Below are positions 13,832-64,000 of a DNA stretch of 64,000 bases, piece after piece (position 1 is the first letter of the stretch; each line of letters begins with the position of its first letter). Below the pieces are notes generated by a model. That model ran no database searches. It had not been told where the DNA came from and was given only the letters and a program-made list of their open reading frames with translations. Position numbers and translations under genes: made by a program. The DNA comes from an uncultured Elusimicrobia bacterium (GTDB lineage: Bacteria; Elusimicrobiota; Elusimicrobia; FEN-1173): the NCBI GenBank assembly GCA_964484135.1, contig CAZAEL010000003.1, forward strand, positions 4,306-68,305, written 5' to 3'.

Positions 13832-13898
13832 CCGGCCGCCCCGCGGCTGGGCGCTTCTGAGCGGCGTTGGCCGCTGAAGGGTCTTCCGCCCTCCTTTC

Positions 13899-42197: not shown

Positions 42198-42201
42198 GGG
42201 T

Positions 42202-42438
42202 TCAGGACTGTTTCTTGAGGTCTTCGAGGGATCGGTCCCGTGTTTCCCGGGGGACCCAGCCGGAGGCCCTGTCCCGGGTCTTGAGGCGCAGGGGATCCAT
42301 GAACACCTTGACCAGGAGGCCGAAAGGGAGGAGGAGGGTGTCATAGAGCAGGATCAAAACCAGGCGGGTCTGGAAAACCCCGATGGCGTGGGCGATCTTT
42401 TTCCAGCCGGCCCAGAGGCGTTTGAGAGAGTCGGCCAT
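42202..42438 (-). CDS. Small predicted membrane protein (78 aa) translationally coupled between the SDR and carbamoyltransferase genes; possibly SxtJ/DUF5989-like
   Basis: [46 protein letters not shown]... Its ATG overlaps the SDR stop (ATGA). The upstream part of the 352-aa ORF-track frame is an Arg/Gly/Pro-rich alternate frame of the SDR gene. Confidence 0.5.
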   Translation of the reverse strand: MADSLKRLWAGWKKIAHAIGVFQTRLVLILLYDTLLLPFGLLVKVFMDPLRLKTRDRASGWVPRETRDRSLEDLKKQS

Positions 42439-44644: not shown

Positions 44645-47042
<2,398 letters not shown>

Positions 47043-47113
47043 CGCCCGACGCCGCTGTCTTGCCGGAGGCCCCCGCGGCCCCGCCGTCGTCCGTCGGCCC
47101 GGTGGATCCCGTC

Positions 47114-49056: not shown

Positions 49057-50165
49057 TGCGCGGGGAAAAGTGGGGGCTGGGCGCCCTGCGGGACCGGCTC
49101 CGAGGCCTGTTGCGTCCCGGCCCTCGGGCCGGGCGCACGTACCGCCAGCTGAAGGATATCGCGGCGGGCGATCGGCCGATCCTCTGCGGACCCTTTTTCA
49201 CCGAGATCGGTTTCGAGGTACTCTATTGGATCCCGTTCGTCAACTGGTTCAGGCAAGAGTTCGGGATCGCCCCTGGGCGGCTTGTCGTCGTTTCCCGCGG
49301 CGGGGCCCAGTCCTGGTACCGCCACGTCACCGCGGACTATGAAGATGTGTTCGATTATTTTACACTGGACGAATTCAAGCGGCGGAACGAGGAGCGCATC
49401 GCGGAAAATAAGCGCAACGGACAGGGCAACGCGCCCAAGCACCTGACCGTTTCGTTTTTGGATCGGGAAATCATCAAAAAGGTGGTCCGAAAACGGGGTT
49501 TTTCCGACTTCAATCTGTTGCATCCGTCTCACATGTTCCGATTCATGGGCGCGATGCGGAACTCGCCCGACATGGAGTTCACCCGATACGAGCTCTTCCG
49601 CGCGGATGAGCGGACGCCCTTGCCGGAAGGACTGCCGGACGACTACGTCGCCGTGAAGTTTTGGTTCGGCGGACAGTTCCCGGACACGGAAACGAACCGG
49701 CGCTTCATCCGGAACCTGGTGAACGCTTTGGCGCGCTCCGGGCCGGTGGTCCTGCTCAATTCCGGCCTTGGGGTGGAGCGGACCCCGGCGTTCGACGCTT
49801 GGTTCGACGGGCAGGAGTTCGACGGGGGGAATGTCCATGGCCTCCGGGGCCGGGTGCCGTTGCGCCAGAACCTGGACGTGCAGACGGCGGTGATCCGCCG
49901 ATCCAGGCTCTTCGTGGGGACTTACGGGGGCTTCGCTTATGCGGCCCCATTCGCCGGCGTCCCGGCCGTCACGTTCTACTCCAACGAGGGGGGGTTCGTG
50001 TACGAACACTTGGACATGCTCCAGCGGGCGCTGCGTCGGCTCCGGCTGGAGACGGGCCGACCAGCGGACTTCGCGCCCTGGGACGTCCGGTTGTTCAGCC
50101 ATTGCGCCGGACGGGTGTTCGACGCCGATTTTTTGAGAGACAGTCCTGTGGTGGGGAGGATTTGA
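49053..50165 (+). CDS. Uncharacterised protein, paralog B (tandem duplicate of the previous gene)
   Basis: 370 aa, co-linear with and ~45-50% identical by eye to paralog A. ATGA coupling. Confidence 0.45.
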
Positions 50166-50167
50166 GA

Positions 50168-51193
50168 ATGGGATCGATGGGTTCGGAAGGACGGGGAAAG
50201 GCCGGGCCCCGAAAGGCCCTGGTCACGGGCGGGGCGGGTTTCATCGGCAGCCACCTTGTGGAACGGCTTCTTGCCGATGGACATGACGTGGCCGTGCTCG
50301 ACAATTTGTCCACGGGCCGCCTGGAGAACCTCAAGCACCTGAAGAGCGAGCGGCTCGTCGTGCATCACGCGGACGTCGCGGAGCCGGACAAGATCCGGCC
50401 GCATTTCGCGGGCGTCGAGTGGGTGTTCCATCTGGCCGCGCTTGCGGACATCGTCCCATCCATCCAGCAGCCGCTCAACTATCACCGTTCCAACGTGGAC
50501 GGCACCGTCAACGTGCTGGAGGCGGCGCGGGCGGCCGGCGTCAAACGGTTTCTCTATGCGGCCTCGTCCTCCTGCTATGGCCTCCCGGACGCCTTCCCGA
50601 CGCCGGAGACGGCGGCCATCCGGCCCATGTACCCCTACGCGCTCACCAAGTGGCTGGGCGAACAATACGTCATGCACTGGGCGCAGGTGTACAAGATGCC
50701 GTGCGTGTCGCTGAGGCTTTTCAACGTGTACGGGCCGCGCTCGCGCACTTCCGGCACCTACGGAGCGGTGTTCGGCGTGTTCCTGGCCCAGAAGCTGGCC
50801 GGGAAACCGTTTACCGTGGTCGGCGACGGAAAGCAGACCCGCGATTTTACGTTCGTGAGCGACGTGGCCGACGCCTTCATCGCTGCGGCCGCTTCCGATG
50901 TGTCCGGGGAGATGTTCAACGTGGGGTCCGGCAACACCTACAGCGTGAACCGGCTGGTGGAACTGCTGGGCGGGACGGTGACGTACATCCCGAAGCGTCC
51001 GGGCGAGCCGGACTGCACCTTCGCGGACACGCGCAAGATCGCGTCTCGGTTGGGCTGGAAGCCGCGCGTGACTTTCGAACAAGGCGTCCAGGCCATGCTG
51101 GACAACATCGACTACTGGCGGAGCGCTCCTGTATGGGACAGCGCTTCCATCGCTGTCGCCACGAAGGAATGGTTTGAGTATCTCGGACGCTGA
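50168..51193 (+). CDS. NAD-dependent epimerase/dehydratase (UDP-glucuronate decarboxylase/UXS-like)
   Basis: [19 protein letters not shown] ... [13 protein letters not shown] ... extended SDR. Confidence 0.75.
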
Positions 51194-51212: not shown

Positions 51213-52763
51213 ATGACGACCGGGACCAACGGCAGGAACAAGACGCATGGCAAGATCGTGGAGCTGGAGGCGCTCGCCGGCATCCTGGACGGCCTCCGCG
51301 CGAAGGAGAAGCGCATCGTGCACTGCCACGGCGTGTTCGATCTCCTCCACGTGGGACACATCCGACATTTTCAGGAGGCCAAGGGGCTCGGCGACGTCCT
51401 CGTCGTCACCCTGACGCAGGACCAATACGTCAACAAGGGTCCGCACCGGCCGGCTTTCAAGCAGGACCTCCGGGCCGAGGTCATCGCCGCTCTTGACTGC
51501 GTGGATTATGTCGCCATCAATCGATGGCCCCAGGCCGCCGAAACCATAAAGCTCCTCCGGCCGCACGTCTACGCCAAGGGGCCCGATTACAAGGATGCCG
51601 CCAAGGACGTGACGGGCGGCATCACCCAGGAGGAGGACGCGGTTCGGTCCGTGGGCGGGAAGATCGTTTTCACCGAGGACATCACCTTCAGCGCCTCCAA
51701 TCTGCTGAACAAGTTCTTCCCGGCTTTCCCCAAGGAAGTCACGGATTACATCGACCACTTCAAAACCCGCTACCCGACGGACAGGGTGCTGGACTATCTC
51801 GAGAAGGCGCGGCCACTCAAGGTGCTCGTCATCGGAGAAACCATCATCGACGAGTATCAATTTTGTACCGCCATCGGAAAGTCCTCCAAGGAGCCCATTA
51901 TCGCCCTTCGGCACAATGCCACGGAACGGTTCGCCGGCGGCGTTCTGGCGGTCGGCAACCACATCGCGAACTTCTGCGAAGAGGTGGGGCTGGTTTCTTA
52001 CTTGGGCAAGGACAGCCCGCACGAACGGTTCGTCCGCGGCAGTTTGAACGAAAAGATCGTGTCCCACTTTCTTTATAAACAGGACTGCCCGACCATCCTG
52101 AAACGGCGCTTCATCGAAAGTTATTTTTTCAGCAAACTCCTCGAAGTGTACGAGATGAACGACCGGGAGTTGAACGAGAAGGAGAACGCCGAGTTCTGCG
52201 CCGTGCTCGACCGGGAGGTGCCGAAATACGACGTCGTGATCGTCTTTGACTTCGGACACGGTATGATGAGCCGGAAGGCCATCGACATCATTTGCCAGAA
52301 GGCGGCCTTCCTGGCCGTCAACGTGCAGTCCAATGCCGGAAACACCGGCTACCAGACGGTGCTCAAGTACCCGCGCGCGGATTACGTATGCATGGCGGAA
52401 AACGAGGTCCGCATGGACCTGCGCGACCGCTACAGCGAGCTCCGGGACGTCACCCGGGGGCTTTATGACAAGTTGGATTGTCAAAAAGTGGTGGTGACCC
52501 GCGGTAAAAACGGATGCCTCTGCTACAGCGCAGAAGAGGGGTTCATCCAGGTGCCGGCCCTGGCGGGGCAAGTGGTGGACCGCATGGGCACGGGGGACGC
52601 TTTTCTCTCCCTGACCGCCCTCTGCGTCAAACAAAAGGCCCCGCTGGAGGTCGTCGGTTTCATCGGAAACGCGGTGGGCGCTCAGGCGGTGGCCACCGTG
52701 GGGCACCGCCGGTTCATTGAAAAGGCTCCCCTGCTCAAGCACATCCAAACCCTGATGAAATGA
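51213..52763 (+). CDS. Bifunctional sugar-phosphate nucleotidyltransferase (N-terminal, RfaE-domain-II/cytidylyltransferase-like) and PfkB-type sugar kinase (C-terminal): HldE-like with inverted domain order
   Basis: N-terminal CHGVFDLLHVGHIRHFQEAKGLGDVLVVTLTQD (HxGH nucleotidyltransferase). C-terminal PfkB pattern with VVDRMGTGDAFLS. GGGAG Shine-Dalgarno 7 nt before ATG 51213. Confidence 0.65.
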   Translation: MTTGTNGRNKTHGKIVELEALAGILDGLRAKEKRIVHCHGVFDLLHVGHIRHFQEAKGLGDVLVVTLTQDQYVNKGPHRPAFKQDLRAEVIAALDCVDYVAINRWPQAAETIKLLRPHVYAKGPDYKDAAKDVTGGITQEEDAVRSVGGKIVFTEDITFSASNLLNKFFPAFPKEVTDYIDHFKTRYPTDRVLDYLEKARPLKVLVIGETIIDEYQFCTAIGKSSKEPIIALRHNATERFAGGVLAVGNHIANFCEEVGLVSYLGKDSPHERFVRGSLNEKIVSHFLYKQDCPTILKRRFIESYFFSKLLEVYEMNDRELNEKENAEFCAVLDREVPKYDVVIVFDFGHGMMSRKAIDIICQKAAFLAVNVQSNAGNTGYQTVLKYPRADYVCMAENEVRMDLRDRYSELRDVTRGLYDKLDCQKVVVTRGKNGCLCYSAEEGFIQVPALAGQVVDRMGTGDAFLSLTALCVKQKAPLEVVGFIGNAVGAQAVATVGHRRFIEKAPLLKHIQTLMK

Positions 52764-52782: not shown

Positions 52783-53388
52783 ATGCTGAAAGACACAGTT
52801 TCGAAGCTCGGCGCAACGGCTTATCTTCAGGACCTCACGCGGATTCTGCTCGGTACGTCGGTCACGGACGCCCGCGGCGCGGAACTTCTCCTGGACGCCG
52901 CCATCGACCGCGCCAGCGACCTGGTGTGGTCCCGCCGAACCGGTTCTGCCAAGGTGATGTTGGTGGGAAACGGCGGCAGCGCCGCCATCGTGAGCCACGC
53001 CCAAAACGACCTCTGTAAGATGATCGGCGCCCGGGCCATGGTGTTCCATGAGACCTCCTACCTCACGGCCCTGGCCAACGACGACGGTTATGAGACCGCT
53101 TTCGAAACGAATGTCCGCCTTTGGGCGGCCCGAGGAGACATGCTGGTGGCCGTAAGCAGTTCGGGGCGGTCGGAGAACATCCTTCGGGCCGTCCGCGCGG
53201 CGCGCGACGCTGGCTGCGAGGTGGCGACTTTTTCCGGGTTCAAACCCGACAACCCGCTTCGCGGCATGGGGGACCTCAATTTTTACGTCAAATCCGGCGA
53301 ATATGGTTTCGTCGAGGTCTCGCACATGGCGTTGCTCCACCTGCTGACGGACCTGACCGCGCGACGTCTTAAGAAGGGAGATCGCTGA
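52783..53388 (+). CDS. gmhA: Phosphoheptose (sedoheptulose-7-phosphate) isomerase
   Basis: SIS domain: VMLVGNGGSAAIVSHAQNDL ... LVAVSSSGRSENIL. Confidence 0.85.
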   Translation: MLKDTVSKLGATAYLQDLTRILLGTSVTDARGAELLLDAAIDRASDLVWSRRTGSAKVMLVGNGGSAAIVSHAQNDLCKMIGARAMVFHETSYLTALANDDGYETAFETNVRLWAARGDMLVAVSSSGRSENILRAVRAARDAGCEVATFSGFKPDNPLRGMGDLNFYVKSGEYGFVEVSHMALLHLLTDLTARRLKKGDR

Positions 53389-54392
53389 TGCCTGCCAATC
53401 GTTTCAAGGAGGTCCTGGTCACCGGAGGGGCCGGCTACGTCGGTGCCATCTTGGTGCCGAAGCTGTTGAAGAAAGGGTATCGCGTCCGGGTACTCGACCT
53501 GTATATGTACGGGGACAACGTCCTTGACGCGGTCAAGGACCATGTGGGCCTGCGGCAGATCAAAGGCGACATGCGGGACGTGAGGCTCCTCAAGGACGCG
53601 ATCCTCGGTTGCGATGCCGTCATACATCTGGCCTGTATCTCCAATGATCCCAGTTTCGAGCTCAACCCGGAACTGGGCAAGTCCATCAACTACGATGCCT
53701 TCCTGCCCTTGGTCCGGCACTCCAAGGAGTTCGGCGTGAAACGGTTCGTCTATGCCTCCTCTTCAAGCGTCTACGGGGTGAAAGAGGAGGACAACGTCAC
53801 CGAGGATCTCCCTCTGGAGCCACTCACGGACTACTCCAAATATAAGGCCATGTGTGAAGAGATTCTGCAAAAGGAGCGCGCGCCGGGTTTCGTCGCGCTG
53901 ACTCTTCGCCCGGCCACGGTCTGTGGCTACTCGCCGCGCCTCCGTCTGGACCTCTCCGTCAACATCCTCACCAACCACGCGGTGAACAACAGGAAGATTC
54001 GCGTGTTCGGCGGCGCGCAGCAGCGCCCCAATATCCACATCGACGACGTCTCGGACCTCTACGTGCAATCGCTCGAGTGGCCGGACGAAAAGATCGATGG
54101 CCAAGTGTTCAACGCCGGATACGAGAATCAATCCCTGAACGACCTGGCCGCGACCGTGAAGAAGGTCGTGGGAGAGGACGTGGCCATCGTCACCGAGCCC
54201 ACCAACGACAATCGTTCCTACCGTATTTCTTCGGAGCGGATCAAGAAGGCGTTGGGCTTCGTGCCGCGCCATACCATCGAGGACGCCGTGGTCGACCTGG
54301 TGAAAGCCTTTCGTGAAGGGAAGATTCCCAACGCCATGACGGACGACCGTTATTACAACATCAAAACCATGCAGCGCCTGAAGCTCAAATAG
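53388..54392 (+). CDS. NAD-dependent epimerase/dehydratase (extended SDR; specificity unknown)
   Basis: VLVTGGAGYVGAILV ... YSKYKAMCE (YxxxK). ATG overlaps the gmhA stop. Confidence 0.75.
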   Translation: MPANRFKEVLVTGGAGYVGAILVPKLLKKGYRVRVLDLYMYGDNVLDAVKDHVGLRQIKGDMRDVRLLKDAILGCDAVIHLACISNDPSFELNPELGKSINYDAFLPLVRHSKEFGVKRFVYASSSSVYGVKEEDNVTEDLPLEPLTDYSKYKAMCEEILQKERAPGFVALTLRPATVCGYSPRLRLDLSVNILTNHAVNNRKIRVFGGAQQRPNIHIDDVSDLYVQSLEWPDEKIDGQVFNAGYENQSLNDLAATVKKVVGEDVAIVTEPTNDNRSYRISSERIKKALGFVPRHTIEDAVVDLVKAFREGKIPNAMTDDRYYNIKTMQRLKLK

Positions 54393-54394
54393 GC

Positions 54395-55369
54395 ATGGGC
54401 CGCCTGGACCCTCAAACGGGCCTCGCTCTCTATGAACGGATGCTCCGCATCCGGCTCGTGGAGGAGCGTATCGTCGAGTTGTATCCCGAGCAACAGATGC
54501 GCTGCCCCGTGCACCTTTGTATCGGACAGGAGGCCGTGTCGGCGGGCGTTTGCGCCCGGCTCCGCAACACGGATCGGGTCTACAGCACCCACCGTTCCCA
54601 CGGGCATTACGTGGGCAAGGGGGGCGATCTGAAGGCGATGTTGGCGGAAATCTACGGCAAAGCGACGGGCTGTTGCCGGGGGAAAGGCGGTTCCATGCAC
54701 CTCTTGGATCTGTCCGTGGGATACATGGGTTCGGCGCCCATCGTCGGCGCCACCATCCCCGTGGCGGTGGGCTCCGCTTTGGCCTCACGGACCAGCCGGA
54801 CGGACGAGGTGACGGTGACGTTTTTCGGAGAAGGCGCGACCGAGGAGGGCGTGTTCCACGAGGCCGTCAATTTCGCTGTACTGAAGAAACTCCCCGTGGT
54901 CTTCGTCTGCGAGAACAACCTCTATTCGGTCTACTCGCCCATGTCCGTGCGCCAGCCTGAGGGACGCGAAGTCTACGCCCTGGCGGCGGGGCACGGCTTG
55001 CCGAGCTTCAAGGCGGACGGGAACGACGTCGCGGAAGTCTATCGCTTGGCGGGGGAAGCCGTTGAGCGCGCGCGGACAGGGAAAGGCCCCTCGTTTCTTG
55101 AGTTCTCCACCTACCGCTGGCGGGAGCATTGCGGACCCAATTTCGACAATGACATCGGCTACCGCACGGAAGCCGAATACCGGGCCTGGCGGAAGCTTTG
55201 CCCGCTTGAGCGCGCCGAACGGGAATTGAGAGGGGCGGGCACCCTCGACGAACGCCGTCGCGCTGCCCTGGAATCGTCCATCCGGGCCGAGATAGACGAA
55301 GCCGTCCGTTTCGCCAAGGAGAGCCCTTTCCCTCCGGCGGAACAGATGGAGGAGCATGTCTATGCCTGA
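54395..55369 (+). CDS. Thiamine-diphosphate-dependent dehydrogenase E1 component, alpha subunit
   Basis: Pyruvate/acetoin dehydrogenase E1-alpha pattern: HLCIGQEAVSAG ... GKGGSMHL ... TPP-binding FFGEGATEEGVFHEAVNFA ... CENNLYS. Confidence 0.8.
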   Translation: MGRLDPQTGLALYERMLRIRLVEERIVELYPEQQMRCPVHLCIGQEAVSAGVCARLRNTDRVYSTHRSHGHYVGKGGDLKAMLAEIYGKATGCCRGKGGSMHLLDLSVGYMGSAPIVGATIPVAVGSALASRTSRTDEVTVTFFGEGATEEGVFHEAVNFAVLKKLPVVFVCENNLYSVYSPMSVRQPEGREVYALAAGHGLPSFKADGNDVAEVYRLAGEAVERARTGKGPSFLEFSTYRWREHCGPNFDNDIGYRTEAEYRAWRKLCPLERAERELRGAGTLDERRRAALESSIRAEIDEAVRFAKESPFPPAEQMEEHVYA

Positions 55370-56435
55370 ACATCCCGCGGCCCGCGAAATCCGTTTCTCC
55401 CAGGCCCTGAACGAGGCCGTGGACCAATGCATGTCCCGCGACCCGCGGGTCGTGTTGATGGGGCTCGGCGTGCCGGACCCGAAAGGGATCTTCGGCAGCA
55501 CGAGCGGCCTCCAGAAGAAACACGGACCGAATCGGGTGATGGACATGCCCTGTTCGGAGAACGGGATGACGGGGGTATGCGTGGGGGCGGCCGTCTCGGG
55601 CCTGCGTCCGGTGCTGACGCACCAGCGCATCGATTTCGCCCTTCTCTCCATGGACCAGATCGTGAACCAGGCCGCCAAGTGGCACTACATGTTCGGAGGG
55701 AAAATGAAGGTGCCCCTGGTCATCCGCATGATCATCGGCCGCGGCTGGGGCCAGGGGCCTCAGCATTCCCAGAGCCTGCAGGCCTGGTTCGCCCACGTCC
55801 CGGGATTGAAGGTCGTGATGCCAGCCACGCCCTATGACGCCAAGGGGTTGCTTGTGTCCGCCATTGAGGACGACAACCCCGTGGTGTTCCTTGAGCATCG
55901 CTGGCTTTACAACATCAAAGGGCCCGTGCCGGAAGAGGTCTACCGCGTTCCCCTCGGGAAGGCCCGCCTGGCGAGGGAGGGGGCCAACGTGACCATCGTG
56001 GCCACGTCTTACATGACTTTGGAGGCGTTGAGGGCCGCCGATGAGTTGAAAAAAACGGGCATCAGCGCCGAAGTCGTCGACGTCCGCACGCTGCGGCCCC
56101 TGGACTCGAAGACGATCCTTGACTCGGTGCGCAAAACCGGCCGCCTTGTGGTGGCGGACACGGGATGGAAAGCGGTGGGGTTCGCGGCGGAGGTGGTGGC
56201 CCAGGCGTCGGAGCAGGCCCTGGGTGATCTGAAGGCGCCGCCCGTGCGCATCACGCTCCCCGACTGCCCCGCCCCGACCAGCCCGGCGCTGGCGGACGGG
56301 TACTATCCGCGCGCGGTGCACATCGCCGCGGCCGTGCGGAAGATGCTGAAGCAGGACGTCGGTGAACTGCTGGACAGTCACCCCGCCGGCCAGCCACTGG
56401 ACGTGCCCGACATGAGTTTCACCGGGCCTTTTTAA
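55356..56435 (+). CDS. Thiamine-diphosphate-dependent dehydrogenase E1 component, beta subunit (transketolase-like)
   Basis: Pyrimidine-binding and C-terminal transketolase domains (ENGMTGVCVGAAVSGLRPV ... VFLEHRWLY). Overlaps the alpha gene. Confidence 0.8.
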   Translation: MSMPEHPAAREIRFSQALNEAVDQCMSRDPRVVLMGLGVPDPKGIFGSTSGLQKKHGPNRVMDMPCSENGMTGVCVGAAVSGLRPVLTHQRIDFALLSMDQIVNQAAKWHYMFGGKMKVPLVIRMIIGRGWGQGPQHSQSLQAWFAHVPGLKVVMPATPYDAKGLLVSAIEDDNPVVFLEHRWLYNIKGPVPEEVYRVPLGKARLAREGANVTIVATSYMTLEALRAADELKKTGISAEVVDVRTLRPLDSKTILDSVRKTGRLVVADTGWKAVGFAAEVVAQASEQALGDLKAPPVRITLPDCPAPTSPALADGYYPRAVHIAAAVRKMLKQDVGELLDSHPAGQPLDVPDMSFTGPF

Positions 56436-56448
56436 TTAAGGAGAAAAC

Positions 56449-57450
56449 ATGAACACGCGCGTCGCGGTCATCGGGAGCAATTCATTCTCGGGAAGCGATT
56501 TCGTCGACCTCCTCCTGGAAGAGGGGCATTACGAGGTCGTCGGCATCAGTCGTTCCCCGGAGAAGAGCGAGGTCTTCCTGCCGTACAAGCGGCATATGAA
56601 CGGAGCCGGAAGCCGATTCCGGTTCCATCAACTGGACCTCAACCACGAGATTCCGAAGATGCTGCAGGTTCTTGAGGACTTCAGGCCCGAGGCCATCGTC
56701 AACTTCGCCGCCCAGAGCGAGGTGGCGCCGAGCTGGGAGAACCCGGACCATTGGTTCCTCACCAACGCGGTGGCTCTCACGCGGCTGGTGAACGGCTTGA
56801 AGGACAAGAAATGGCTGAAGAGATACGTCCACATCTCTTCGCCGGAGGTATACGGCACCTGCGAGGGCTTCATCACCGAGTCCGCTCCGGTCAACCCCAG
56901 CACGCCCTACGCCGCCTCCAAGGCCGCGGGCGACCTATCGCTCTTCACCTACCACAAGAACTTCGCCTTCCCCATCGTCACGATCCGCGCCACGAACGTC
57001 TACGGGGCCTACCAGCAGCTCTTCAAGATTATCCCGCGCTCCGTCATCAACCTGAAGTTGGGTAAGACCATCCAGCTCCATGGGGGCGGCGTGGCGGTGA
57101 AGTCCTACATCCACATCCGCGACGTCTCTCGCGGTGAGCTGGCCGCGATGGAGAAGGGGCGGCCGGGCGAGATCTACCACCTCTCGCCCGACCGCGGCTA
57201 CGCCGTAAAGGAGGTGGTGGAGACCATCTGCCGGCGGATGGGCAAGGATTTCGCGAAATGCACCGAGGCCGTGGCCGAGCGCCTGGGACAGGACAAGGCC
57301 TACACCATCGATTCCTCCAAGGCCCGGAAGGAATTCGGCTGGAAGCCGGCCGTGTCGCTCGACGAAGGCATCGGGCAGGTCATCTCCTGGGTGGACCGCT
57401 ACTGGGACCAGATTCAGAGACAGCCCCTCAATTACGCGCATAAGCCATGA
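56449..57450 (+). CDS. NAD(P)-dependent epimerase/dehydratase-family protein (candidate NDP-sugar ketoreductase/epimerase)
   Basis: VAVIGSNSFSGSDFV ... YAASKAAGD (YxxxK). Confidence 0.7.
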   Translation: MNTRVAVIGSNSFSGSDFVDLLLEEGHYEVVGISRSPEKSEVFLPYKRHMNGAGSRFRFHQLDLNHEIPKMLQVLEDFRPEAIVNFAAQSEVAPSWENPDHWFLTNAVALTRLVNGLKDKKWLKRYVHISSPEVYGTCEGFITESAPVNPSTPYAASKAAGDLSLFTYHKNFAFPIVTIRATNVYGAYQQLFKIIPRSVINLKLGKTIQLHGGGVAVKSYIHIRDVSRGELAAMEKGRPGEIYHLSPDRGYAVKEVVETICRRMGKDFAKCTEAVAERLGQDKAYTIDSSKARKEFGWKPAVSLDEGIGQVISWVDRYWDQIQRQPLNYAHKP

Positions 57451-58691
57451 AGACCTTTTCGAAATCCAGAAGGAAATCTCGAGCGCCCATCGCGCGGAAG
57501 GCCGAAAGCCACATCCGCCGGCGTAAGACGGCATGTTCGGCCTGCGGGGAGGAGAGATTGGTCAGGTTGCTTGATCTGCCCAATCTGCCGCTCACCGGGA
57601 TTTACCTCAAAGAGAAGGTCCGCGGACGGTTCGAGCCGTCGGACCAGGGGTTGTCCCTCTGCCGCGTCTGCGGTCACGCCCAGCTGTTGAACGTCCTTGA
57701 CCCGAACTACGTTTATGACGACACCTACACGCACCGCAGCTCCCAGAGTCCCATCGCGACGGGCGGGAACGACTTCTTCCACGTTTTCATCGCCAAATTG
57801 AGCGGGGGGCGGAAATTTCGCCGCATCGTGGACGTGGGTTGCAACGACATGGTGCTGCTCCGCAAGCTTCAGCCCATGGGGGAACGGCTTCTGGGCGTGG
57901 ACCCCATCTGGCGGGGCAACGAGCCGCCCGATGAGGGAAACATCCGCGTGCTGGGTAAGTTCATCGAGGAGGTGGATTTGGCCAAAGAGCTGGGCGGCCG
58001 GCCGGATTTGGTCGTTTCCACGCACACCTTCGAGCACATTGACGAGCCCAAGGTTGAAATCAAGCGGCTATTGGACGCCGCGGATCCAGACGCACTTTTC
58101 GTGGTGGAAGTCCCGAGTTTCGACACGCTTTTGGAGCTTTCGCGTTTCGATCAGGTGTTTCATCAGCACATCCAGTATTTCAGCCTGGCTTCCTTTTCGC
58201 GGATGGTTCGTGACCTCGGTTGCCGGGTGACGGCGCACGCATTCAATTACTATTATTGGGGTGGCACGATGTTGGTGGCGTTCCGTCGCGCCAGAGGCGG
58301 TTCGGGAGAAGACGGCTTTCAGATGCCGACCGAAGAGGCCGCCTCCGGGAGTTTTTCCCGTTTCAAAGCGCAGCTGACATCCACGATGAAGACCGTTGAA
58401 TCCCTGCGCGGTACGGCGATACATGGTTTTGGCGCGGCCCAGATGCTGCCGACGCTCGCTTACCACATGGGGACGGACCTTTCGTTTTTGGATTCCATTC
58501 TGGACGACGATCCTCGCAGGGACGGGTTGGTGTACCCCGATTTGGCCCCCCGAATTGAACGGCCGGGAGAGGATTTTACGCTCGAAGGTAAAAATGTGTT
58601 GTTGACGGCCCTCGACAGCGCGCGGCCCATCCTGCGCCGGCTCATCGCGTTGAGGCCCAAACGGTTGCTTTTGCCGCTCAGCCTGCTCTGA
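57447..58691 (+). CDS. NDP-sugar C-methyltransferase (TylCIII/EryBIII-like; N-terminal Zn-finger, class I SAM MTase core, C-terminal C-MT domain)
   Basis: CSACGEERL ... CRVCGHAQL Zn-binding pairs. VDVGCNDMVLL SAM motif. EHIDEP. C-terminal domain typical of sugar C3/C5 methyltransferases. ATGA coupling. Confidence 0.7.
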   Translation: MKTFSKSRRKSRAPIARKAESHIRRRKTACSACGEERLVRLLDLPNLPLTGIYLKEKVRGRFEPSDQGLSLCRVCGHAQLLNVLDPNYVYDDTYTHRSSQSPIATGGNDFFHVFIAKLSGGRKFRRIVDVGCNDMVLLRKLQPMGERLLGVDPIWRGNEPPDEGNIRVLGKFIEEVDLAKELGGRPDLVVSTHTFEHIDEPKVEIKRLLDAADPDALFVVEVPSFDTLLELSRFDQVFHQHIQYFSLASFSRMVRDLGCRVTAHAFNYYYWGGTMLVAFRRARGGSGEDGFQMPTEEAASGSFSRFKAQLTSTMKTVESLRGTAIHGFGAAQMLPTLAYHMGTDLSFLDSILDDDPRRDGLVYPDLAPRIERPGEDFTLEGKNVLLTALDSARPILRRLIALRPKRLLLPLSLL

Positions 58692-58701
58692 CCAAAAAGC
58701 C

Positions 58702-59622
58702 ATGAAAAACTCGTCTTCGTCCAATCGGAAATTGCGGGTCGCCATCATCGGGAGCGGGAACATCGGCGCCGACCTCTTGGTGAAGGTGTCTCGTTCCCCG
58801 GTTCTGGAGTGCTCGTTGTTCATTGGGCGGAGCCTGGAATCCAAGGGCATGCAGGTGGCCCGCGGTCTTGGCGTGCCGGTTTCTGACCGGAGTATCGACG
58901 CGATTTCGGACGATCCTGACCGCTGTGAGCTGGTATTCGACGCAACGTCCGCAAAGGACCACATGCGCCATTCCAAAATCCTGGCGGATCTGGGCAAGAT
59001 GGTGGTGGATATGACGCCGTCCCGCGTGGGCCGCATGGTCGTCCCCGCGGTCGATGGAGACAAGGCGGCCGATTTTCAGAACGTGAATATGGTGAGCTGT
59101 GGGGGTCAAGCTTCAATCCCGTTGGCCTACGCGCTGGCGCAGGCGCACGATCGCGTGGATTATATCGAGGTCGTTTCCAGCATCGCTTCCAAAAGCGCGG
59201 GGCCGGCGACGCGGATCAACCTTGATGAGTATATTGAGACCACCGAGGCCGCGATACAGAGTTATTCCAAGTGCCGGAAGGCCAAGACGATTCTCATCCT
59301 GAACCCCGCCGAACCCTGCATCGATATGCAGACGACGGTCTCTGCGGTGGTCGAACAGCCGAACCTGGAGAAGCTCGAAGGGGTGCTTCGGGGCGTGCTT
59401 GAAAATGTCACCTCTTATGTACCTGGATACGAACTGGTCGTCAGGCCGGTATTCCAGAGCGGCCGTATCTTCATGATGGCGCGCGTCCGCGGCCGGGGAG
59501 ACTATCTGCCGCGTTACGCAGGCAACCTGGACATCATCAACTGCGCCGCCATCGCCACCGCGGAGCGGTACGCGCGCAAGGTCCTTGCCAAAGAGCCGTT
59601 TAGAGAGGAGACCAAGATATGA
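58702..59622 (+). CDS. Acetaldehyde dehydrogenase (acetylating), DmpF/MhpF/BphJ family
   Basis: KLRVAIIGSGNIGADLLVKVSRS ... NMVSCGGQASIP. Hallmark N-terminus and catalytic Cys region. Confidence 0.85.
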   Translation: MKNSSSSNRKLRVAIIGSGNIGADLLVKVSRSPVLECSLFIGRSLESKGMQVARGLGVPVSDRSIDAISDDPDRCELVFDATSAKDHMRHSKILADLGKMVVDMTPSRVGRMVVPAVDGDKAADFQNVNMVSCGGQASIPLAYALAQAHDRVDYIEVVSSIASKSAGPATRINLDEYIETTEAAIQSYSKCRKAKTILILNPAEPCIDMQTTVSAVVEQPNLEKLEGVLRGVLENVTSYVPGYELVVRPVFQSGRIFMMARVRGRGDYLPRYAGNLDIINCAAIATAERYARKVLAKEPFREETKI

Positions 59623-60644
59623 AACGGAAGATCCTCATCAGCGATCCGACTCTGCGGGACGGCAACCATGCGGTACAGCACCAGTTGAACGCCGAGCAGG
59701 TCGCGGCCTATTGTGAGGCCGCGGACGCGGCCGGGGTCCCCATTGTGGAGGTGGGACACGGCAACGGCATCGGGGCTTCTTCCCTCCAGGTGGGGGAGAG
59801 TCTTCTCGGCGATGCCGAGATGCTGTCCGTGGCGCGCAAGCACCTGAAACGATCCAAATTGGGCATCCACTGCATGCCGAGCTTTGCCACCATCAACAAG
59901 GACCTGCAGCCGGCCATCGATTTGGGCGTGGATGTCATTCGTATCGGCGCGCATTGCACGGAAGCGGACACCACCCAACGGCAGATCGGTTACGCGCGTT
60001 CCAAAGGGAAAGAGGTGTTCGGCGCCCTCATGATGATCCATATGGCGACCAAGGAGCAGCTGGCCGAAGAATGCCGTAAAATGGAATCTTACGGCGCCCA
60101 GGCCGTCATCTTGTTGGATTCCGTCGGCGGCTATCTGCCGGACGACGTGCGGGAACTGGTTTCCTATGTGGTCTCAAAAGTCAACATTCCTATCGGGTTC
60201 CATGCCCACAACAACCTGGGGATGGCCATTGCCAATCCCGTCGCAGCGGTCGAAGCGGGGGCCTCCATTGCGGATGGGACCGCCCGGGGCTTCGGGGCCG
60301 GGGCGGGCAACACCCAACTCGAGGTGCTGGTGGCCGTGCTTCACAAGCTCGGTTATGAAACGGGCATCGATCTATACAAAATGCTTGACGCTTCGGACTT
60401 GGCGGCGAAAGAACTGATGAAGGTCGTGCCTTCGATCAGGCCCTCCAGCATCGTGAGCGGACTGTCGGGTGTATTCTCCGGTTTCGCCAAGCATGTGGAG
60501 CGGGTGGCGACGCAATACGGCGTGGATCCCCGGGACGTATTTTTTGAACTCGGAAAGCGAAAAGTGGTCGCAGGACAAGAGGATTGCATCATCGAAGTGG
60601 CCATGGACTTGGTCAAAAAAAAGGAGGCCGCCGCGGCGCGTTGA
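59619..60644 (+). CDS. 4-hydroxy-2-oxovalerate aldolase (DmpG/MhpE/BphI family)
   Basis: ISDPTLRDGNHAVQH ... HAHNNLGMAIAN ... DRE-TIM aldolase with C-terminal communication domain. ATGA coupling with the dehydrogenase gene. Confidence 0.85.
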   Translation: MKRKILISDPTLRDGNHAVQHQLNAEQVAAYCEAADAAGVPIVEVGHGNGIGASSLQVGESLLGDAEMLSVARKHLKRSKLGIHCMPSFATINKDLQPAIDLGVDVIRIGAHCTEADTTQRQIGYARSKGKEVFGALMMIHMATKEQLAEECRKMESYGAQAVILLDSVGGYLPDDVRELVSYVVSKVNIPIGFHAHNNLGMAIANPVAAVEAGASIADGTARGFGAGAGNTQLEVLVAVLHKLGYETGIDLYKMLDASDLAAKELMKVVPSIRPSSIVSGLSGVFSGFAKHVERVATQYGVDPRDVFFELGKRKVVAGQEDCIIEVAMDLVKKKEAAAAR

Positions 60645-60646
60645 CC

Positions 60647-61468
60647 ATGTTGAAAACCAATTTTCTCAAACAGAAGCTCGCGTCCCAGCGTTTCGTCCTG
60701 GGGACTTGGTGCAACCTGCCTTCATCCTTCGTGGCCGATGTTATTGCGTCTTCAGGGCTGGATTTCCTCGTGATTGACCGGGAACACGGCGCGGTGGGCC
60801 ACGGTACGGCCGCGGCCATGGCAATGGCTTGCGAATCGAACGGCGTTTCGCCCGTGCTTCGCGTTCCGGGGATCGAGGAGGCCGAGATATTGAAAGCGCT
60901 GGATATCGGCATACACGCCCTCCAGGTGCCGAACGTTTCAGGGACGGCGGATGTGGAGCGTATCGTTTCCTTCGCCAAATATCCTCCGCTTGGTCGCCGC
61001 GGCTTTTCACCATTCACTCGGGCCGGAGCCTATTCGCACCTCAACGCCCCGCGCCTTTTCCGTGAAGCAAACGCCAACGTGCTCCTTGTGGTGCACGTGG
61101 AAGGCCCGGAAGCCGTGGAGGCCTCCGGGCGTATCGCCGAGATGGACGCCATAGACGTTGTGTTTGTCGGCCTATACGATCTGTCCAAGGCCGTGGGCAT
61201 GGCGGGTGAGGTGAATCATCCCAAGGTATGGGGCCAGTTGGAAACCGTGGTCAAGCGGATCGGAGGGGCCGGCAAGGCCGTCGGCACCATCGCCACCGAC
61301 GTCGAGCAGGTCCGGCGCTATGTGGATATGGGCGTTCGTTATATCACGTACTCGGTGGATTGTGAAGTGTTGGGACGGGGCTATCGTGATGCCGTCGGGG
61401 CATTGGCCGACATTCGAAAAAAGAATACATCGCTCAAAACCACCGTAAAGGAGAGACAGAGAGCATGA
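60647..61468 (+). CDS. HpcH/HpaI family 2-keto-3-deoxy-acid aldolase
   Basis: LGTWCNLPSSFVADVIASSGLDFLVIDREHG ... VPNVSGTADVERIV ... KYPPLGRRG. Start at ATG 60647 rather than ORF-track 60584. Confidence 0.75.
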   Translation: MLKTNFLKQKLASQRFVLGTWCNLPSSFVADVIASSGLDFLVIDREHGAVGHGTAAAMAMACESNGVSPVLRVPGIEEAEILKALDIGIHALQVPNVSGTADVERIVSFAKYPPLGRRGFSPFTRAGAYSHLNAPRLFREANANVLLVVHVEGPEAVEASGRIAEMDAIDVVFVGLYDLSKAVGMAGEVNHPKVWGQLETVVKRIGGAGKAVGTIATDVEQVRRYVDMGVRYITYSVDCEVLGRGYRDAVGALADIRKKNTSLKTTVKERQRA

Positions 61469-62259
61469 ATCTAAACCTGACGGGCAAAAAGGCGCTGGTT
61501 ACGGGGGGCGCTTCCGGCATCGGACGCGCGATCGTACGCGAGCTTGCGAAGGAAGGCGTGAAGGTGGCTTTTACCTCCCGCAACGAGGAACGTTCGCGTG
61601 AAACGATGGAAATGATCGGCGGCACGAAAGCCGGCCACCTCTTCGTCAAAAGCGCCATCGCGGAAGAGGGGGAGCCTCGCCGCGTGGCGGAAACGGTCTG
61701 GAAAGGCTTGGGAGAACTGGACATCGTGGTCAACAACGTCGGCGATACGCTCAACATCGTCGACCCGCTCTGCCCGCTTTCAGACTGGAAGCGGCTTTAC
61801 CGCTTGAACCTGGAGGTCCACGTTGAGGTCAACAATCTTTTCATACCGCACATGAAGGAGCAGAAGTGGGGGCGCATCGTGAACATTACGGCCGGGGCGG
61901 CTTTCGAAAACAGCGGCCCCGTGCCCTATTGCACCATGAAGGCGGCGTACACGGCGTACACGCGCAGCATGGCGCGGGTATTGGCTCCGGAGGGGATCGT
62001 GATGTCGGCCGTCTTGCCGGGCGTTGTGCTGACGGAGGAGGGGCACTGGCAGAGGGTCCTGAAGGAACGTCCGGAACACGCCGAGAAATACCTCGCGGAG
62101 CGCACCAGCCTGAAACGGTTCGGCCGTACGGACGAAATTAGTCCCATGGTGGCGCTCCTTTGTTCGGATTTGGCGAGTTTTTGCGTCGGCTCCATCGTGC
62201 CGGTGGAAGGCGGACAGGCGCGCCATTTCTTTGCCGGCAACCAATATTCCATCATCTAG
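61465..62259 (+). CDS. SDR family oxidoreductase
   Basis: [17 protein letters not shown] ... NNVG ... classical SDR. ATGA coupling. Confidence 0.8.
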   Translation: MNLNLTGKKALVTGGASGIGRAIVRELAKEGVKVAFTSRNEERSRETMEMIGGTKAGHLFVKSAIAEEGEPRRVAETVWKGLGELDIVVNNVGDTLNIVDPLCPLSDWKRLYRLNLEVHVEVNNLFIPHMKEQKWGRIVNITAGAAFENSGPVPYCTMKAAYTAYTRSMARVLAPEGIVMSAVLPGVVLTEEGHWQRVLKERPEHAEKYLAERTSLKRFGRTDEISPMVALLCSDLASFCVGSIVPVEGGQARHFFAGNQYSII

Positions 62260-62277
62260 CCGAGGGGCCGGACAAGC

Positions 62278-64000
62278 GTGAAATTGACCGATTACGTCGT
62301 CAAGCTCCTGAAGGACAACGGCGTTAACCATGTGTTCGGATTAACGGGCGGAGCGGCCGTGCACCTGTTCGACTCGGCGGATCGGCTGTCGGGCATGACG
62401 CCGGTCTTCAACCACCATGAACAGGCCGGGGCCATGGCCGCGGAAGCCTACGCCAAAGTCCGAAACGGTCTGGGCGCGTGTTTCGTCACAACGGGCCCGG
62501 GGGTGACGAACGCCCTTACCGGGCTCTGCATCGCCTGGCAGGATTCCGTGCCCTGCGTGTTTATCTCCGGACAGACGCGCGTTGAACACACCTCACGCGG
62601 AAAGCCCGTACGACAGGTCGGGACCCAGCACCTGGAAGTCGTGCCCATCGTGCAGAGCATGACCAAATACGCGGTCATGGTGCCTGACGCCGGCAGTATC
62701 CGCTATCACTTGGAAAAGGCGGTTCACCTGGCGCGCACGGGCCGCCCGGGGCCGGTCTGGATCGACCTCCCCTTGAACCTGCAGTGGGCGAACGTCGAGC
62801 CGGACGCTTTGCGAAGATTTGATCCCGCTGAACTCCCTCCTGCACCCGAAGACCCGACCCTTGGACAAAAAGTTGAGCAATGTCTTGCCCTCTTAAACGT
62901 GGCCAAGAGACCGCTGGTTCTTGTAGGTTACGGCGTTCGTTTGGCTCATGCGGAAGCCGAATTCCTTCAATTCCTGGACGCCTATCAGGTCCCCTTCCTC
63001 ACGACGTGGGGCGCGGCGGACCTGTGTGATACAGACGATCCACTCTATGTGGGACGTCCCGGCATCGCCGGCCAGCGAGGCGCCAACCTCGCCATCCAGA
63101 ACTGCGACCTGCTGATCGCCATTGGGTCTCATCTCAGCATTCCGATCACGGGGACGCTCTTTCAGGCGTTTGCCCGGGAGGCGAAGCGGGTGGTCGTGAA
63201 CATCGATCAGCAGCAGCTCGATTTCGAGACGGTGCGCGTGGATTTGCCGATCCGTTGCGATGCCGGGAGGTTCTTGGTCGAGATGGTTAAGCGCGCGCCG
63301 TCCCGTCATTCCCAGGATATTCCTACCTGGCGCGGCAAATGCCAGCGTTACGCGGGGTATAACCAAGTTCCCGCCGACTGGTACTCCCAGAAAGTTTCTG
63401 TCAACCAGTACGTTTTCGTAGACGAGCTCTCCAAATCCCTTGAGACGGATGACGTCGTGGTCGTAGACGGCGGGGGGACAAACGTGTACATCTCGTTCCA
63501 AGCGCTGCGTTTGAAAAAAGGCCAACGTGTCATCATGCCCACCGCGACCGCTCCCATGGGATCGGGTCTGCCCGAAGCCATCGGCGCTTGCTTCGCAAAG
63601 GGCGGCGGGCGGACAATCTGTCTCTGCGGGGACGGGAGCTTCCAGCTCAACGTGCAGGAGCTTCAGACGGTCTTCCACCACAAACTACCGATTAAGCTGT
63701 TCATTTTCAACAACGATGGTTACGTGTCCATCCGCGGGACCCAAGCCGAATTTTTGGAAGGGAACTTCGCGGGTTCGACGGCCAAGGGCGGCATGAGCCT
63801 TCCAGATGTGTGCGCCGTGGCGGCGGCATATAAGTTGCCCACCTATCGTATCGAACGTCATGATCAGATAGGAGAAACGCTGAAAACGATCCTCAAGTCC
63901 TCCGGGCCGGCGGTCTGCGAGGTGATGATATCGCCGGATCAGAAGGTGGTGCCGACCCAGGGTTTCTATCGTTTGCCGGACGGCACGTTCCGCCCTCGAC
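62278..64000 (+). CDS. ThDP-dependent acetolactate-synthase-like enzyme (YerE-like candidate), GTG start, 3'-truncated at the window end
   Basis: Hand-translated, because the ORF track omits it (no stop in window). VKLTDYVVKLLKDNGVNHVFGLTGGAAVHLFD ... HEQAGAMAAEAYAKV ... TTGPGVTNAL ... TPP motif GDGSFQLNVQEL ... FNNDGY. Confidence 0.75.
   Translation, partial: MKLTDYVVKLLKDNGVNHVFGLTGGAAVHLFDSADRLSGMTPVFNHHEQAGAMAAEAYAKVRNGLGACFVTTGPGVTNALTGLCIAWQDSVPCVFISGQTRVEHTSRGKPVRQVGTQHLEVVPIVQSMTKYAVMVPDAGSIRYHLEKAVHLARTGRPGPVWIDLPLNLQWANVEPDALRRFDPAELPPAPEDPTLGQKVEQCLALLNVAKRPLVLVGYGVRLAHAEAEFLQFLDAYQVPFLTTWGAADLCDTDDPLYVGRPGIAGQRGANLAIQNCDLLIAIGSHLSIPITGTLFQAFAREAKRVVVNIDQQQLDFETVRVDLPIRCDAGRFLVEMVKRAPSRHSQDIPTWRGKCQRYAGYNQVPADWYSQKVSVNQYVFVDELSKSLETDDVVVVDGGGTNVYISFQALRLKKGQRVIMPTATAPMGSGLPEAIGACFAKGGGRTICLCGDGSFQLNVQELQTVFHHKLPIKLFIFNNDGYVSIRGTQAEFLEGNFAGSTAKGGMSLPDVCAVAAAYKLPTYRIERHDQIGETLKTILKSSGPAVCEVMISPDQKVVPTQGFYRLPDGTFRPR

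Follow-up and report, generated by a model that had tools for sequence, protein, structure and literature searches.

The stretch of DNA analyzed here (64,000 nucleotides of contig CAZAEL010000003.1, in assembly GCA_964484135.1; hereafter, the window) comes from an uncultured Elusimicrobiota bacterium and carries, in its right-hand part, a block of genes for the putative synthesis of a branched sugar. The block is a co-directional plus-strand run that extends without interruption from approximately 50.2 kb to beyond 64 kb, with 13 genes listed (Table 1, from epi332 onward) and positions 54395–64000 as its distal part. An initial annotation, made without database searches, had named nine genes in the distal part, and by Pfam all nine lie where they had been placed, on the plus strand and closely packed. 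The protein families that it had proposed are recovered as well: a pyruvate dehydrogenase (PDH)-like E1 alpha/beta pair, a TylCIII-type C-methyltransferase (CMT) with a zinc finger, an intact DmpF/DmpG pair, an HpcH-family keto-acid aldolase, and a YerE-type thiamine diphosphate (ThDP) enzyme. Upstream, the gmd, HldE-like, GmhA-like, and epimerase genes are present as described, the HldE-like protein having a reversed domain order. The tight coupling noted earlier is evident from the junctions between 50.2 and 64 kb, where genes overlap by 4–8 nt or are separated by gaps of at most 18 nt; ATGA overlaps occur at epi333/CMT, at DmpF/DmpG, and between HpcH and the short-chain dehydrogenase/reductase (SDR) gene that follows it. 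Across 44.4–64 kb, motifs resembling promoters and terminators occur only as often as in shuffled sequence; the scan thus carries little information and gives no sign of a separate dmpFG transcription unit.

Table 1. Genes of the sugar block and of the region preceding it (window coordinates; NDP, nucleoside diphosphate; SAM, S-adenosylmethionine; ALS, acetolactate synthase)
Feature	Position	Strand	Evidence and remarks
GDP-mannose 4,6-dehydratase (gmd)	45223-46206	+	Pfam GDP_Man_Dehyd E=4e-138; possible alternative source of 4-keto acceptor
Wzm-like ABC-2 permease	46290-47042 (approximate)	+	tblastn with Wzm of locus L086: 23% identity, 185 aa, E=5e-11; hydrophobic frame
Wzt-like ABC ATPase	47090-47935 (start approximate)	+	Pfam ABC_tran; Walker A GTPGSGKT; 53% identical to ABC protein preceding cassette in locus L001
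Tandem paralogs u421 and u370 (374 and 370 aa)	47932-49056, 49053-50165	+	No Pfam match; 55% mutual identity; between Wzt and sugar cassette
Extended-SDR epimerase/reductase epi332, first gene of conserved cassette	~50198-51193	+	Pfam Epimerase E=8e-63; 81% identical to L001 617-1615
HldE-like nucleotidyltransferase-kinase, reversed domain order	51213-52763	+	Pfam CTP_transf_like (52-151), then PfkB (216-514)
GmhA-like SIS-domain sugar-phosphate isomerase	52783-53388	+	Pfam SIS_2
Extended-SDR epimerase/reductase epi334, GalE/HldD-like	53388-54392	+	Pfam Epimerase E=1e-39
E1 alpha, ThDP-dependent, PDH/acetoin-dehydrogenase type	54395-55369	+	Pfam E1_dh E=7e-70
E1 beta	55362-56435	+	Pfam Transket_pyr + Transketolase_C
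epi333, RmlB-like NDP-sugar 4,6-dehydratase candidate	56449-57450	+	Pfam GDP_Man_Dehyd/Epimerase
NDP-sugar CMT, SAM-dependent, TylC3/TcaB9/KijD1 family	57447-58691	+	Pfam Methyltransf_13 Zn domain (E=1e-7) + Methyltransf_23
Acylating acetaldehyde dehydrogenase, DmpF/BphJ/ErwJ-like	58702-59622	+	Pfam AcetDehyd-dimer E=1e-46
Class II pyruvate aldolase, DmpG/BphI/ErwI-like	59619-60644	+	Pfam HMGL-like + DmpG_comm
HpcH/HpaI-family class II pyruvate aldolase	60647-61468 (true start ATG 60647)	+	Pfam HpcH_HpaI
Classical SDR, candidate branch-ketone reductase	61465-62259	+	Pfam adh_short E=8e-40; co-conserved, 62-81% identity, in loci L001, L005, L014, L038, L057
YerE-like ThDP carboligase, ALS fold	62278 to beyond 64000 (cut by window end)	+	Pfam TPP_enzyme_N/M/C

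E1 alpha and E1 beta are encoded by separate genes and contain full-length Pfam domains. The best Protein Data Bank (PDB) match of E1 alpha is human PDH E1 alpha (188 bits), and its ThDP motif is GEG...ENN; E1 beta scores 339 bits against the NCBIfam PDH E1 beta subfamily (cut-off 321). No E2 or E3 gene was found near the pair in the window or among the annotated neighbors of E1 pairs (loci L001, L086, and L167); the neighbors are sugar enzymes of the SDR type. Homologs approximately 70 per cent identical to E1 beta abound in metagenomes, as well as in metagenome-assembled genomes (MAGs) named Omnitrophota, Planctomycetes, Syntrophomonadaceae, and Marsarchaeota, and the E1 alpha/beta cassette recurs on hundreds of metagenome contigs at approximately 60–70 per cent protein identity. 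Its partners were counted by tblastn in 36 loci of at least 9 kb from a metagenome scan. The reversed nucleotidyltransferase-kinase accompanies the E1 pair in 30 loci, epi334 in 24, the SIS-domain protein and an RmlB-like SDR in 17 each, each of two types of small SAM methyltransferases in 25, and a zinc-dependent alcohol dehydrogenase (Zn-ADH) in 12; other YerE-like ThDP enzymes occur in 6, DmpFG in 1, and HpcH in 0. Among annotated relatives of the pair, a NUDIX gene is often nearby, as sometimes are Wzm and Wzt. The order in L086 is Wzm, Wzt, nucleotidyltransferase-kinase, epimerase, E1 alpha, E1 beta, B12-radical-SAM, PhyH, RmlB-like, radical-SAM, RmlD-like, methyltransferase, alcohol dehydrogenase, and NUDIX. 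We found no described product for this cassette in the literature. The ketoreductase that accompanies the E1 pair (Zn-ADH, or the SDR here) fits an acetoin-type ligation followed by reduction. As a separate observation, the combination of E1 alpha/beta with the reversed nucleotidyltransferase-kinase, SDR, methyltransferase, and NUDIX genes is common in metagenomes (positions 10001–11056 of L086 with flanks; L087–L166), and its accessories vary among B12-radical-SAM, PhyH dioxygenase, radical-SAM, Zn-ADH, and other YerE-like enzymes.

The genes on either side of the E1 pair point to the kind of sugar on which it may act. In the HldE-like protein, the kinase domain (motif DxxGxGD) is closest to the heptose-7-phosphate kinase HldA (PDB 4e84), and the nucleotidyltransferase domain (motif HxGH) resembles 5x9q and 3glv, which are cytidylyltransferase-like and lipopolysaccharide-core proteins. 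All PDB matches of the SIS protein are GmhA except two DiaA entries; its metal-binding and catalytic positions are occupied by His/Asp/Glu/His, with most of the metal site conserved. Scores against the corresponding NCBIfam models are low: 153 bits for HldE (cut-off 521), 72 bits for phosphoheptose isomerase (cut-off 276), and, for epi334, 120 bits for GalE and 78 bits for heptose 6-epimerase, both below cut-off. In the PDB, the nine structures that match epi333 best are all dTDP-glucose 4,6-dehydratases (top hit 6bi4, 164 bits; NCBIfam score 205 bits, cut-off 365), and the protein keeps the dehydratase Glu in SSPEVYG as well as YAASK. No HAD-type domain, which would mark a GmhB-type phosphatase, was found among the genes scanned at 37.6–64 kb, and such an enzyme may be encoded elsewhere. 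Queries for RfbF and DdhC from loci L082 and L083 had no tblastn match in the 64-kb window; in loci of the fused type described below, DdhC matched nowhere and RfbF gave one weak match, in L014. Given these absences, the acceptor is not the CDP-dideoxyhexose of erwiniose or yersiniose; judged from the genes present, it would most simply be an NDP-6-deoxy-4-keto-heptose-like sugar. The CMT aligns over residues 25–373 of 414 with its PDB matches, mycarose 3-C-methyltransferase (4rv9; E = 3e-29), TcaB9, and KijD1. A CxxC...CxxC pattern is visible in its N-terminal zinc domain, a class I SAM domain is present, and the family-specific C-terminal domain Methyltransf_14 was not reported by hmmscan.

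For the second half of the block, a published scheme provides the closest guide. In it, a hydroxy-keto acid made by an aldolase is grafted by a YerE-like ThDP enzyme onto a 4-keto NDP-sugar (Steitz et al. 2022; PMC9306805). In Pectobacterium atrosepticum, the genes for ErwI (BphI-like), ErwJ (BphJ-like), ErwE (YerE-like), and the reductase ErwF adjoin each other; with (4R)-4-hydroxy-2-oxopentanoate, though not with pyruvate, ErwE carries out ligation to a keto-sugar analog, which explains the C4 branch of erwiniose; caryophyllose synthesis in Mycobacterium marinum requires MMAR_2331, an HpcH/citrate-lyase-family aldolase, and the ThDP enzyme MMAR_2332 (PMC9306805). In the window, DmpF retains the catalytic Cys133 within VSCGGQ. 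DmpG matches PDB entries 4jn6 and 1nvm (both approximately 255 bits) and keeps the catalytic and metal residues R17, D18, H21, H200, and H202 (as R13/D14/H17/H195/H197), with His84, Met86, and Phe286 at the positions of BphI Leu87, Leu89, and Tyr290. BphI is strictly 4S-specific, its Y290F variant loses stereocontrol, and its L87N/Y290F variant is 4R-specific (PMC3962088). The pair of a polar residue and Phe in the window DmpG thus predicts a 4R or relaxed product, matching the 4R preference of ErwE; by this analogy, the aldol product is probably (4R)-4-hydroxy-2-oxopentanoate. The HpcH protein matches 7v8t and 2v5j, with the catalytic His, Arg, Glu, and Asp aligned and conserved, and scores 162 bits against NCBIfam HpaI (cut-off 369).

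Active-site residues and gene neighborhoods of the DmpG-type aldolases vary together. Among 83 DmpG homologs compared, all 50 aldolases with a YerE-like neighbor lack the Leu/Tyr pair (34 of the 50 have His/Phe), and none of the 22 with the Leu87/Tyr290 pair has a YerE-like neighbor. We also compared the window proteins by tblastn with 80 DmpG-like loci from a scan of one genome per species. Where the locus is at least 9 kb long and its DmpG is at least 48 per cent identical, a YerE-like gene lies within 10 kb in 42 of 50 cases and HpcH in 14 of 50; for DmpG proteins below 48 per cent identity (Bacillales and other Bacillota), the corresponding counts are 0/20 and 0/20. Neither the window nor any syntenic locus contains meta-cleavage genes (hydratase, dioxygenase, or other). 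Annotated loci of Anaeromyxobacter (L082), Planktothrix (L083), and Omnitrophica (L168) have the classical arrangement of the erwiniose type, in which RfbF is accompanied by a CDP-sugar 4,6-dehydratase and a dehydrase like DdhC. In the Anaeromyxobacter paludicola locus, two different YerE/ALS-like ThDP genes (4670–6424 and 12097–13884) flank DmpFG within one glycan locus, which hints at two branching events there too. One DmpG homolog record (P0051) additionally has a NeuB (PF03102) domain match, suggesting that in another organism the aldolase is fused with, or encoded next to, an enzyme of nonulosonic-acid synthesis.

The best PDB match of the window ThDP enzyme is JanthE (8rph; 414 bits, approximately 37 per cent identity), compared with 270 bits for the acetolactate synthase 5ahk, and all NCBIfam ALS models score far below cut-off. 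The enzyme has the canonical GDG motif. In a neighbor-joining tree, it falls in a clade of its own with the YerE-like enzymes of L001, L005, L014, L030, L038, and L057, separate from the clades of DmpFG-only loci, one of which holds JanthE, and from an E1-associated clade. A tblastn search found no close ortholog of an ErwF-type reductase (the best match, at 28 per cent identity, is epi332); from its sequence and co-conservation, the classical SDR at 61465–62259 could be the branch ketoreductase.

Loci that combine the E1 cassette with DmpFG and a YerE-like enzyme recur: we found five, namely L057 from Desulfobaccales, L030 from an unclassified MAG, and L001, L090, and L167 on metagenome contigs. 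L001, whose DmpG is 86 per cent identical to that of the window, has the same gene order and continues with the C-terminus of the ThDP enzyme, a methyltransferase, a 558-aa protein with weak similarity to glycosyltransferase family 2 (GT2), a second methyltransferase, NUDIX, GT2, two small membrane proteins, and YfhO. L167 lacks CMT and HpcH and has both the SDR and Zn-ADH; the two reductases fit two branch ketones, each of which is reduced. We describe the window in terms of two cassettes. Cassette 1 comprises the GmhA-like, reversed HldE-like, RmlB-like, E1 alpha/beta, methyltransferase, and NUDIX genes, and cassette 2 the donor genes DmpF/DmpG/HpcH/SDR/YerE-like, to which a gene of the 3-C-methyltransferase family is added in the window. 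Among cultivable organisms, cassette 2 is carried, for example, by Chromobacterium haemolyticum DSM 19808, Pedobacter hiemivivus, and Paenibacillus algorifonticola.

The surroundings of the block are those of a surface-glycan locus. Upstream glycan genes encode a UDP-glucose dehydrogenase, a Wzx-like protein, a carbamoyltransferase, an SDR, a Wzy_C protein, a helix–turn–helix regulator, and gmd, followed by Wzm-like and Wzt-like proteins; the whole is a surface-glycan locus of the ABC-transporter (Wzm/Wzt) type in an uncultured member of the Elusimicrobiota. The host assignment agrees with the Rho protein encoded in the window, which is 86–90 per cent identical to Rho of Elusimicrobiota MAGs; rho is one of several housekeeping genes farther upstream, together with prfA, murA, hisD, hisB, and trpE. 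G + C content declines from 0.65–0.72 at 16–44 kb to 0.59–0.63 at 44–64 kb and is approximately 6–8 points lower over the glycan cassette, consistent with an acquired glycan island. The cassette enzymes are 60–73 per cent identical to proteins of unrelated phyla (Cyanobacteria, Bacteroidota, Omnitrophota, and archaea), and together these sequence features point to horizontal spread of the cassettes.

Several neighboring features deserve separate mention. The carbamoyltransferase gene (40404–42344), of the NodU/CmcH type, lies inside the glycan locus on the minus strand and suggests an O-carbamoylated sugar. No homologs of u421 and u370 were found in the 166 related loci compared. An AlphaFold2 model of u370, built from a two-sequence alignment, has a predicted local distance difference test value of 60 and weak GT-B matches, led by the GT9 heptosyltransferase-family structure 3tov (template modeling score 0.35); on this model, the two proteins are possibly GT-B glycosyltransferases. 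An open reading frame (ORF) at 50419–51177 (252 aa; ‘u252’) was considered as a gene of unknown function and rejected, being a wrong-frame shadow of epi332. In this GC-rich genome, mechanical ORF lists need to be checked by third-codon-position G + C or by homology. At the left edge, a single ORF of approximately 2,390 codons (3–7178) runs past the end of the window and has third-position G + C typical of coding sequence.

We consider it highly probable (approximately 0.8) that the block encodes synthesis of a nucleotide-activated deoxy sugar with several carbon branches, destined for a surface glycan, and that it does so, as part of this reading, through a fusion of two horizontally mobile cassettes, both of which are seen alone elsewhere. 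The scheme that follows is built on observed gene content, catalytic residues (intact in DmpF, DmpG, HpcH, the nucleotidyltransferase, the kinase, and the SIS protein), synteny, and co-occurrence; every substrate in it, and the order of steps, is predicted. The GmhA-like isomerase and the HldE-like kinase/nucleotidyltransferase would convert a ketose phosphate, most likely sedoheptulose-7-phosphate, into an NDP-heptose-like sugar, from which the RmlB-like epi333 would produce the 4-keto-6-deoxy form. The TylC3/TcaB9-type CMT may then methylate a carbon adjacent to the keto group, and the E2-less E1 alpha/beta pair may transfer a C2 (acetyl) unit from pyruvate onto a sugar carbonyl, in the manner of AviB1/B2, Pau11/12, and KbDH. 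In parallel, DmpF would reduce acetyl-CoA to acetaldehyde, the DmpG-like aldolase would join acetaldehyde and pyruvate into 4-hydroxy-2-oxopentanoate, probably 4R, and the HpcH aldolase may contribute a further hydroxy-keto acid or one with a longer chain. The YerE-like enzyme would decarboxylate the keto acid and add the resulting hydroxyacyl anion to a keto carbon of the NDP-sugar, and the SDR would reduce the new branch ketone. In relatives, two downstream SAM methyltransferases are likely to perform O-methylation before transfer by GT2/YfhO-type enzymes, with a NUDIX hydrolase encoded alongside. The logic of cassette 2 is established for homologs and is carried over to the window by analogy.

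Some observations weigh against this reading. The GmhA-, HldE-, and RmlB-like proteins lie far below the NCBIfam equivalog cut-offs and no GmhB was recognized, so that ‘heptose’ is only the best available guess. The closest solved relative of E1 alpha is an ordinary PDH E1, and its AviB1/B2-like role is assigned by analogy. Two ThDP carboligases need two acceptor carbonyls, of which only that at C4 is obviously generated. The absence of CMT and HpcH from L167 makes both accessory, and, because the ThDP gene is cut by the window end, what lies downstream is known from relatives only. The most far-reaching version of the reading we hold to be rather doubtful: a single NDP-heptose-derived sugar would receive the C2 unit from E1, a hydroxyacyl unit from the YerE-like enzyme (possibly on the ketone made by E1), and a C-methyl group, giving a doubly or triply branched skeleton of 14 to 16 carbons, and cassette 1 would represent a large, unrecognized family of branched-heptose pathways in uncultured bacteria and archaea. 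Such a monosaccharide skeleton, if real, would have no known counterpart.

The same genes could instead serve two sugars of one glycan, with the E1 cassette producing a C2-branched heptose-like sugar and the DmpFG/HpcH/YerE-like cassette decorating another 4-keto sugar, for example, GDP-4-keto-6-deoxymannose derived from gmd. This is possible, although we would bet against it. Each cassette does occur alone (L086 has E1 without DmpFG/YerE; L082, L083, and L168 have DmpFG/YerE-like genes without E1), gmd lies 4 kb upstream, and a gmd homolog of at least 45 per cent identity is found in 6 of the 50 DmpG loci. However, the fused loci L001, L030, L057, and L167 have no gmd (identity of at most 26 per cent, or no match) and no RfbF/DdhC, and in the tree, fused loci have YerE-like enzymes of a separate clade, which suggests that these are adapted to the sugar of cassette 1. 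With two aldolases and two ThDP enzymes in one operon, an iterative chain can also be envisaged, in which E1 decarboxylates 4-hydroxy-2-oxopentanoate to 3-hydroxybutanal, HpcH extends this aldehyde with another pyruvate to a C7 dihydroxy-keto acid, and the YerE-like enzyme grafts a caryophyllose-type C6 branch. The long caryophyllose donor is made by HpcH-family aldolases, and HpcH is present in 14 of the 50 DmpG loci; yet the E1 pair tracks the nucleotidyltransferase-kinase and SDR genes, not DmpFG (1/36 loci) or HpcH (0/36), only L057 among the 14 DmpG-scan loci with HpcH and DmpFG has E1 alpha/beta, and L167 combines E1 alpha/beta, DmpFG, and a YerE-like enzyme without HpcH. We regard the iterative chain as unlikely.

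It is very improbable that the product is not a pyranose at all. On that account, the TagD-like nucleotidyltransferase and the PfkB kinase would activate an acyclic polyol or a keto-acid-derived unit built by the ThDP and aldolase enzymes, yielding a donor of the CDP-alditol type for a teichoic-acid-like decoration with phosphodiester links; this would agree with the resemblance of the nucleotidyltransferase domain to glycerol-3-phosphate and ethanolamine-phosphate cytidylyltransferases, with the sub-cut-off heptose assignments and missing GmhB, and with the conservation of NUDIX in the cassette. The best matches of the kinase, nucleotidyltransferase, and SIS proteins are nevertheless consistently heptose-pathway enzymes, without a pyranosyl NDP-sugar neither an RmlB-like dehydratase nor a sugar 3-C-methyltransferase could act, and no TagF-like transferase was seen. 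Finally, dmpFG, hpcH, and the ALS-like gene could be a degradative or central-metabolic unit (4-hydroxy-2-oxovalerate cleavage and acetolactate synthesis) that lies beside glycan genes by chance. Database names (‘4-hydroxy-2-oxovalerate aldolase’; NCBIfam matches to the acetolactate synthase family) and the fact that DmpFG usually acts in meta-cleavage pathways would favor such a unit. Yet the window and the syntenic loci are free of meta-cleavage genes, the genes are translationally coupled to sugar genes, the ThDP enzyme is nearest JanthE, falls far under every ALS cut-off, and has no ALS small subunit beside it, and the DmpG active-site signature is unlike that of the catabolic clade. We reject this explanation, to which we assign almost no probability, on gene context and active-site signature. 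The proposal in the initial annotation that the block serves biosynthesis and not catabolism is accordingly sustained by context, by co-occurrence with YerE-like genes, and by the DmpG signature; it had also raised the case of an operon ending in aromatic-degradation genes, but in the relative L001 no such genes follow, and the operon runs on into methyltransferases, NUDIX, GT2, and a YfhO-type GT-C protein.

Yersiniose, erwiniose, and caryophyllose exemplify the branched higher sugars, a rare and immunologically important group that is hard to detect by chemical means, so that further examples are to be found mainly by gene-based prediction. Aldolase-fed YerE-like branching, C2 branching by E1 alpha/beta, and TylC3-type C-methylation are all of known kinds. 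In the literature searched, we found no report of three C–C-forming systems stacked in one glycan operon, of a heptose-like front end in place of CDP-dideoxyhexose, of an E1 alpha/beta cassette with so broad an environmental distribution, or of a Leu87/Tyr290-negative signature in biosynthetic DmpG-type aldolases; searches for a glycan pathway that joins E1 alpha/beta to heptose, and for later work on acyl-branched sugars, returned nothing beyond the two Freiburg papers. The present reading extends the aldolase plus YerE-like scheme of 2022 to a new phylum, Elusimicrobiota, and suggests that it can be coupled to a scaffold other than CDP-hexose, possibly heptose-like, and stacked with E1 alpha/beta branching, until now tied to actinomycete antibiotics. 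The two-residue signature (no Leu87/Tyr290) separates biosynthetic from catabolic DmpG and predicts C4 stereochemistry, and the E1 alpha/beta cassette is a tractable target for new sugars and for new carboligases in biocatalysis.

Stand-alone E1 alpha/beta pairs of the ‘alpha-KADH2’ type (AviB1/B2, Pau11/12, and KbDH) are the second known route by which keto sugars acquire a C2 branch (PMC4425429; PMC12247030). The window pair is likened to them by gene layout and not by sequence: it, too, consists of PDH-like E1 alpha and E1 beta without E2/E3 and adjoins NDP-sugar dehydratase and reductase genes. The known examples come from actinomycete antibiotic clusters and act on 2,6-dideoxy or pentose sugars, whereas the window pair belongs to a glycan cassette that is widespread and whose front end is GmhA/HldE-like. 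That front end in turn departs from the ADP-heptose pathway (GmhA, HldE or HldA + HldC, GmhB) in lacking equivalog-level GmhA and HldE and in the reversed domain order of the HldE-like protein.

No solved structure is closer to the window ThDP enzyme than that of JanthE from Janthinobacterium, an enzyme that can use 4-hydroxy-2-oxovalerate as well as ketone acceptors; JanthE has a CDG motif where the window enzyme has GDG, and members of its clade adjoin DmpFG without HpcH, whereas the window enzyme belongs to a different clade. The physiological substrate of JanthE has been reported as unknown (PMC12188165). As a side observation, the ThDP enzymes of L019, L021, and L025, which are 70–71 per cent identical to JanthE and share its CDG motif, are encoded directly beside DmpF/DmpG-type genes, so that the natural donor of JanthE is probably 4-hydroxy-2-oxopentanoate. 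Relative to catabolic DmpFG/BphIJ, the window aldolase and dehydrogenase have the same fold, metal and catalytic residues, Cys nucleophile, and aldehyde-channeling communication domain, but His/Phe replaces Leu87/Tyr290 and the context is biosynthetic; the predicted direction of the window DmpG is aldol synthesis, with C4 stereochemistry opposite or relaxed.

The closest precedents remain erwiniose and caryophyllose. The initial annotation had suggested an undescribed branched-sugar pathway; its branched-sugar logic stands, but the pathway type is not undescribed, as it equals the published erwiniose and caryophyllose schemes (PMC9306805). As in the caryophyllose system, the window combines an HpcH-family pyruvate aldolase with a YerE-like enzyme, and a long hydroxylated branch is expected, but here HpcH coexists with DmpFG, and the product would be a Wzm/Wzt-exported Elusimicrobiota glycan instead of a mycobacterial lipooligosaccharide. 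With the erwiniose system, the window shares BphI/DmpG-like, BphJ/DmpF-like, YerE-like, and ketoreductase genes in a surface-polysaccharide locus, as well as the predicted donor 4-hydroxy-2-oxopentanoate. It differs in that the erwiniose locus has genes for the acceptor CDP-4-keto-3,6-dideoxyglucose (RfbF, RfbG, DdhC, and DdhD), whereas the window has none of them and its scaffold appears heptose-like; in that ErwF is an extended SDR and the window reductase a classical one; and in that the window adds E1 alpha/beta, the C-methyltransferase, and HpcH, with a ThDP enzyme from a separate clade.

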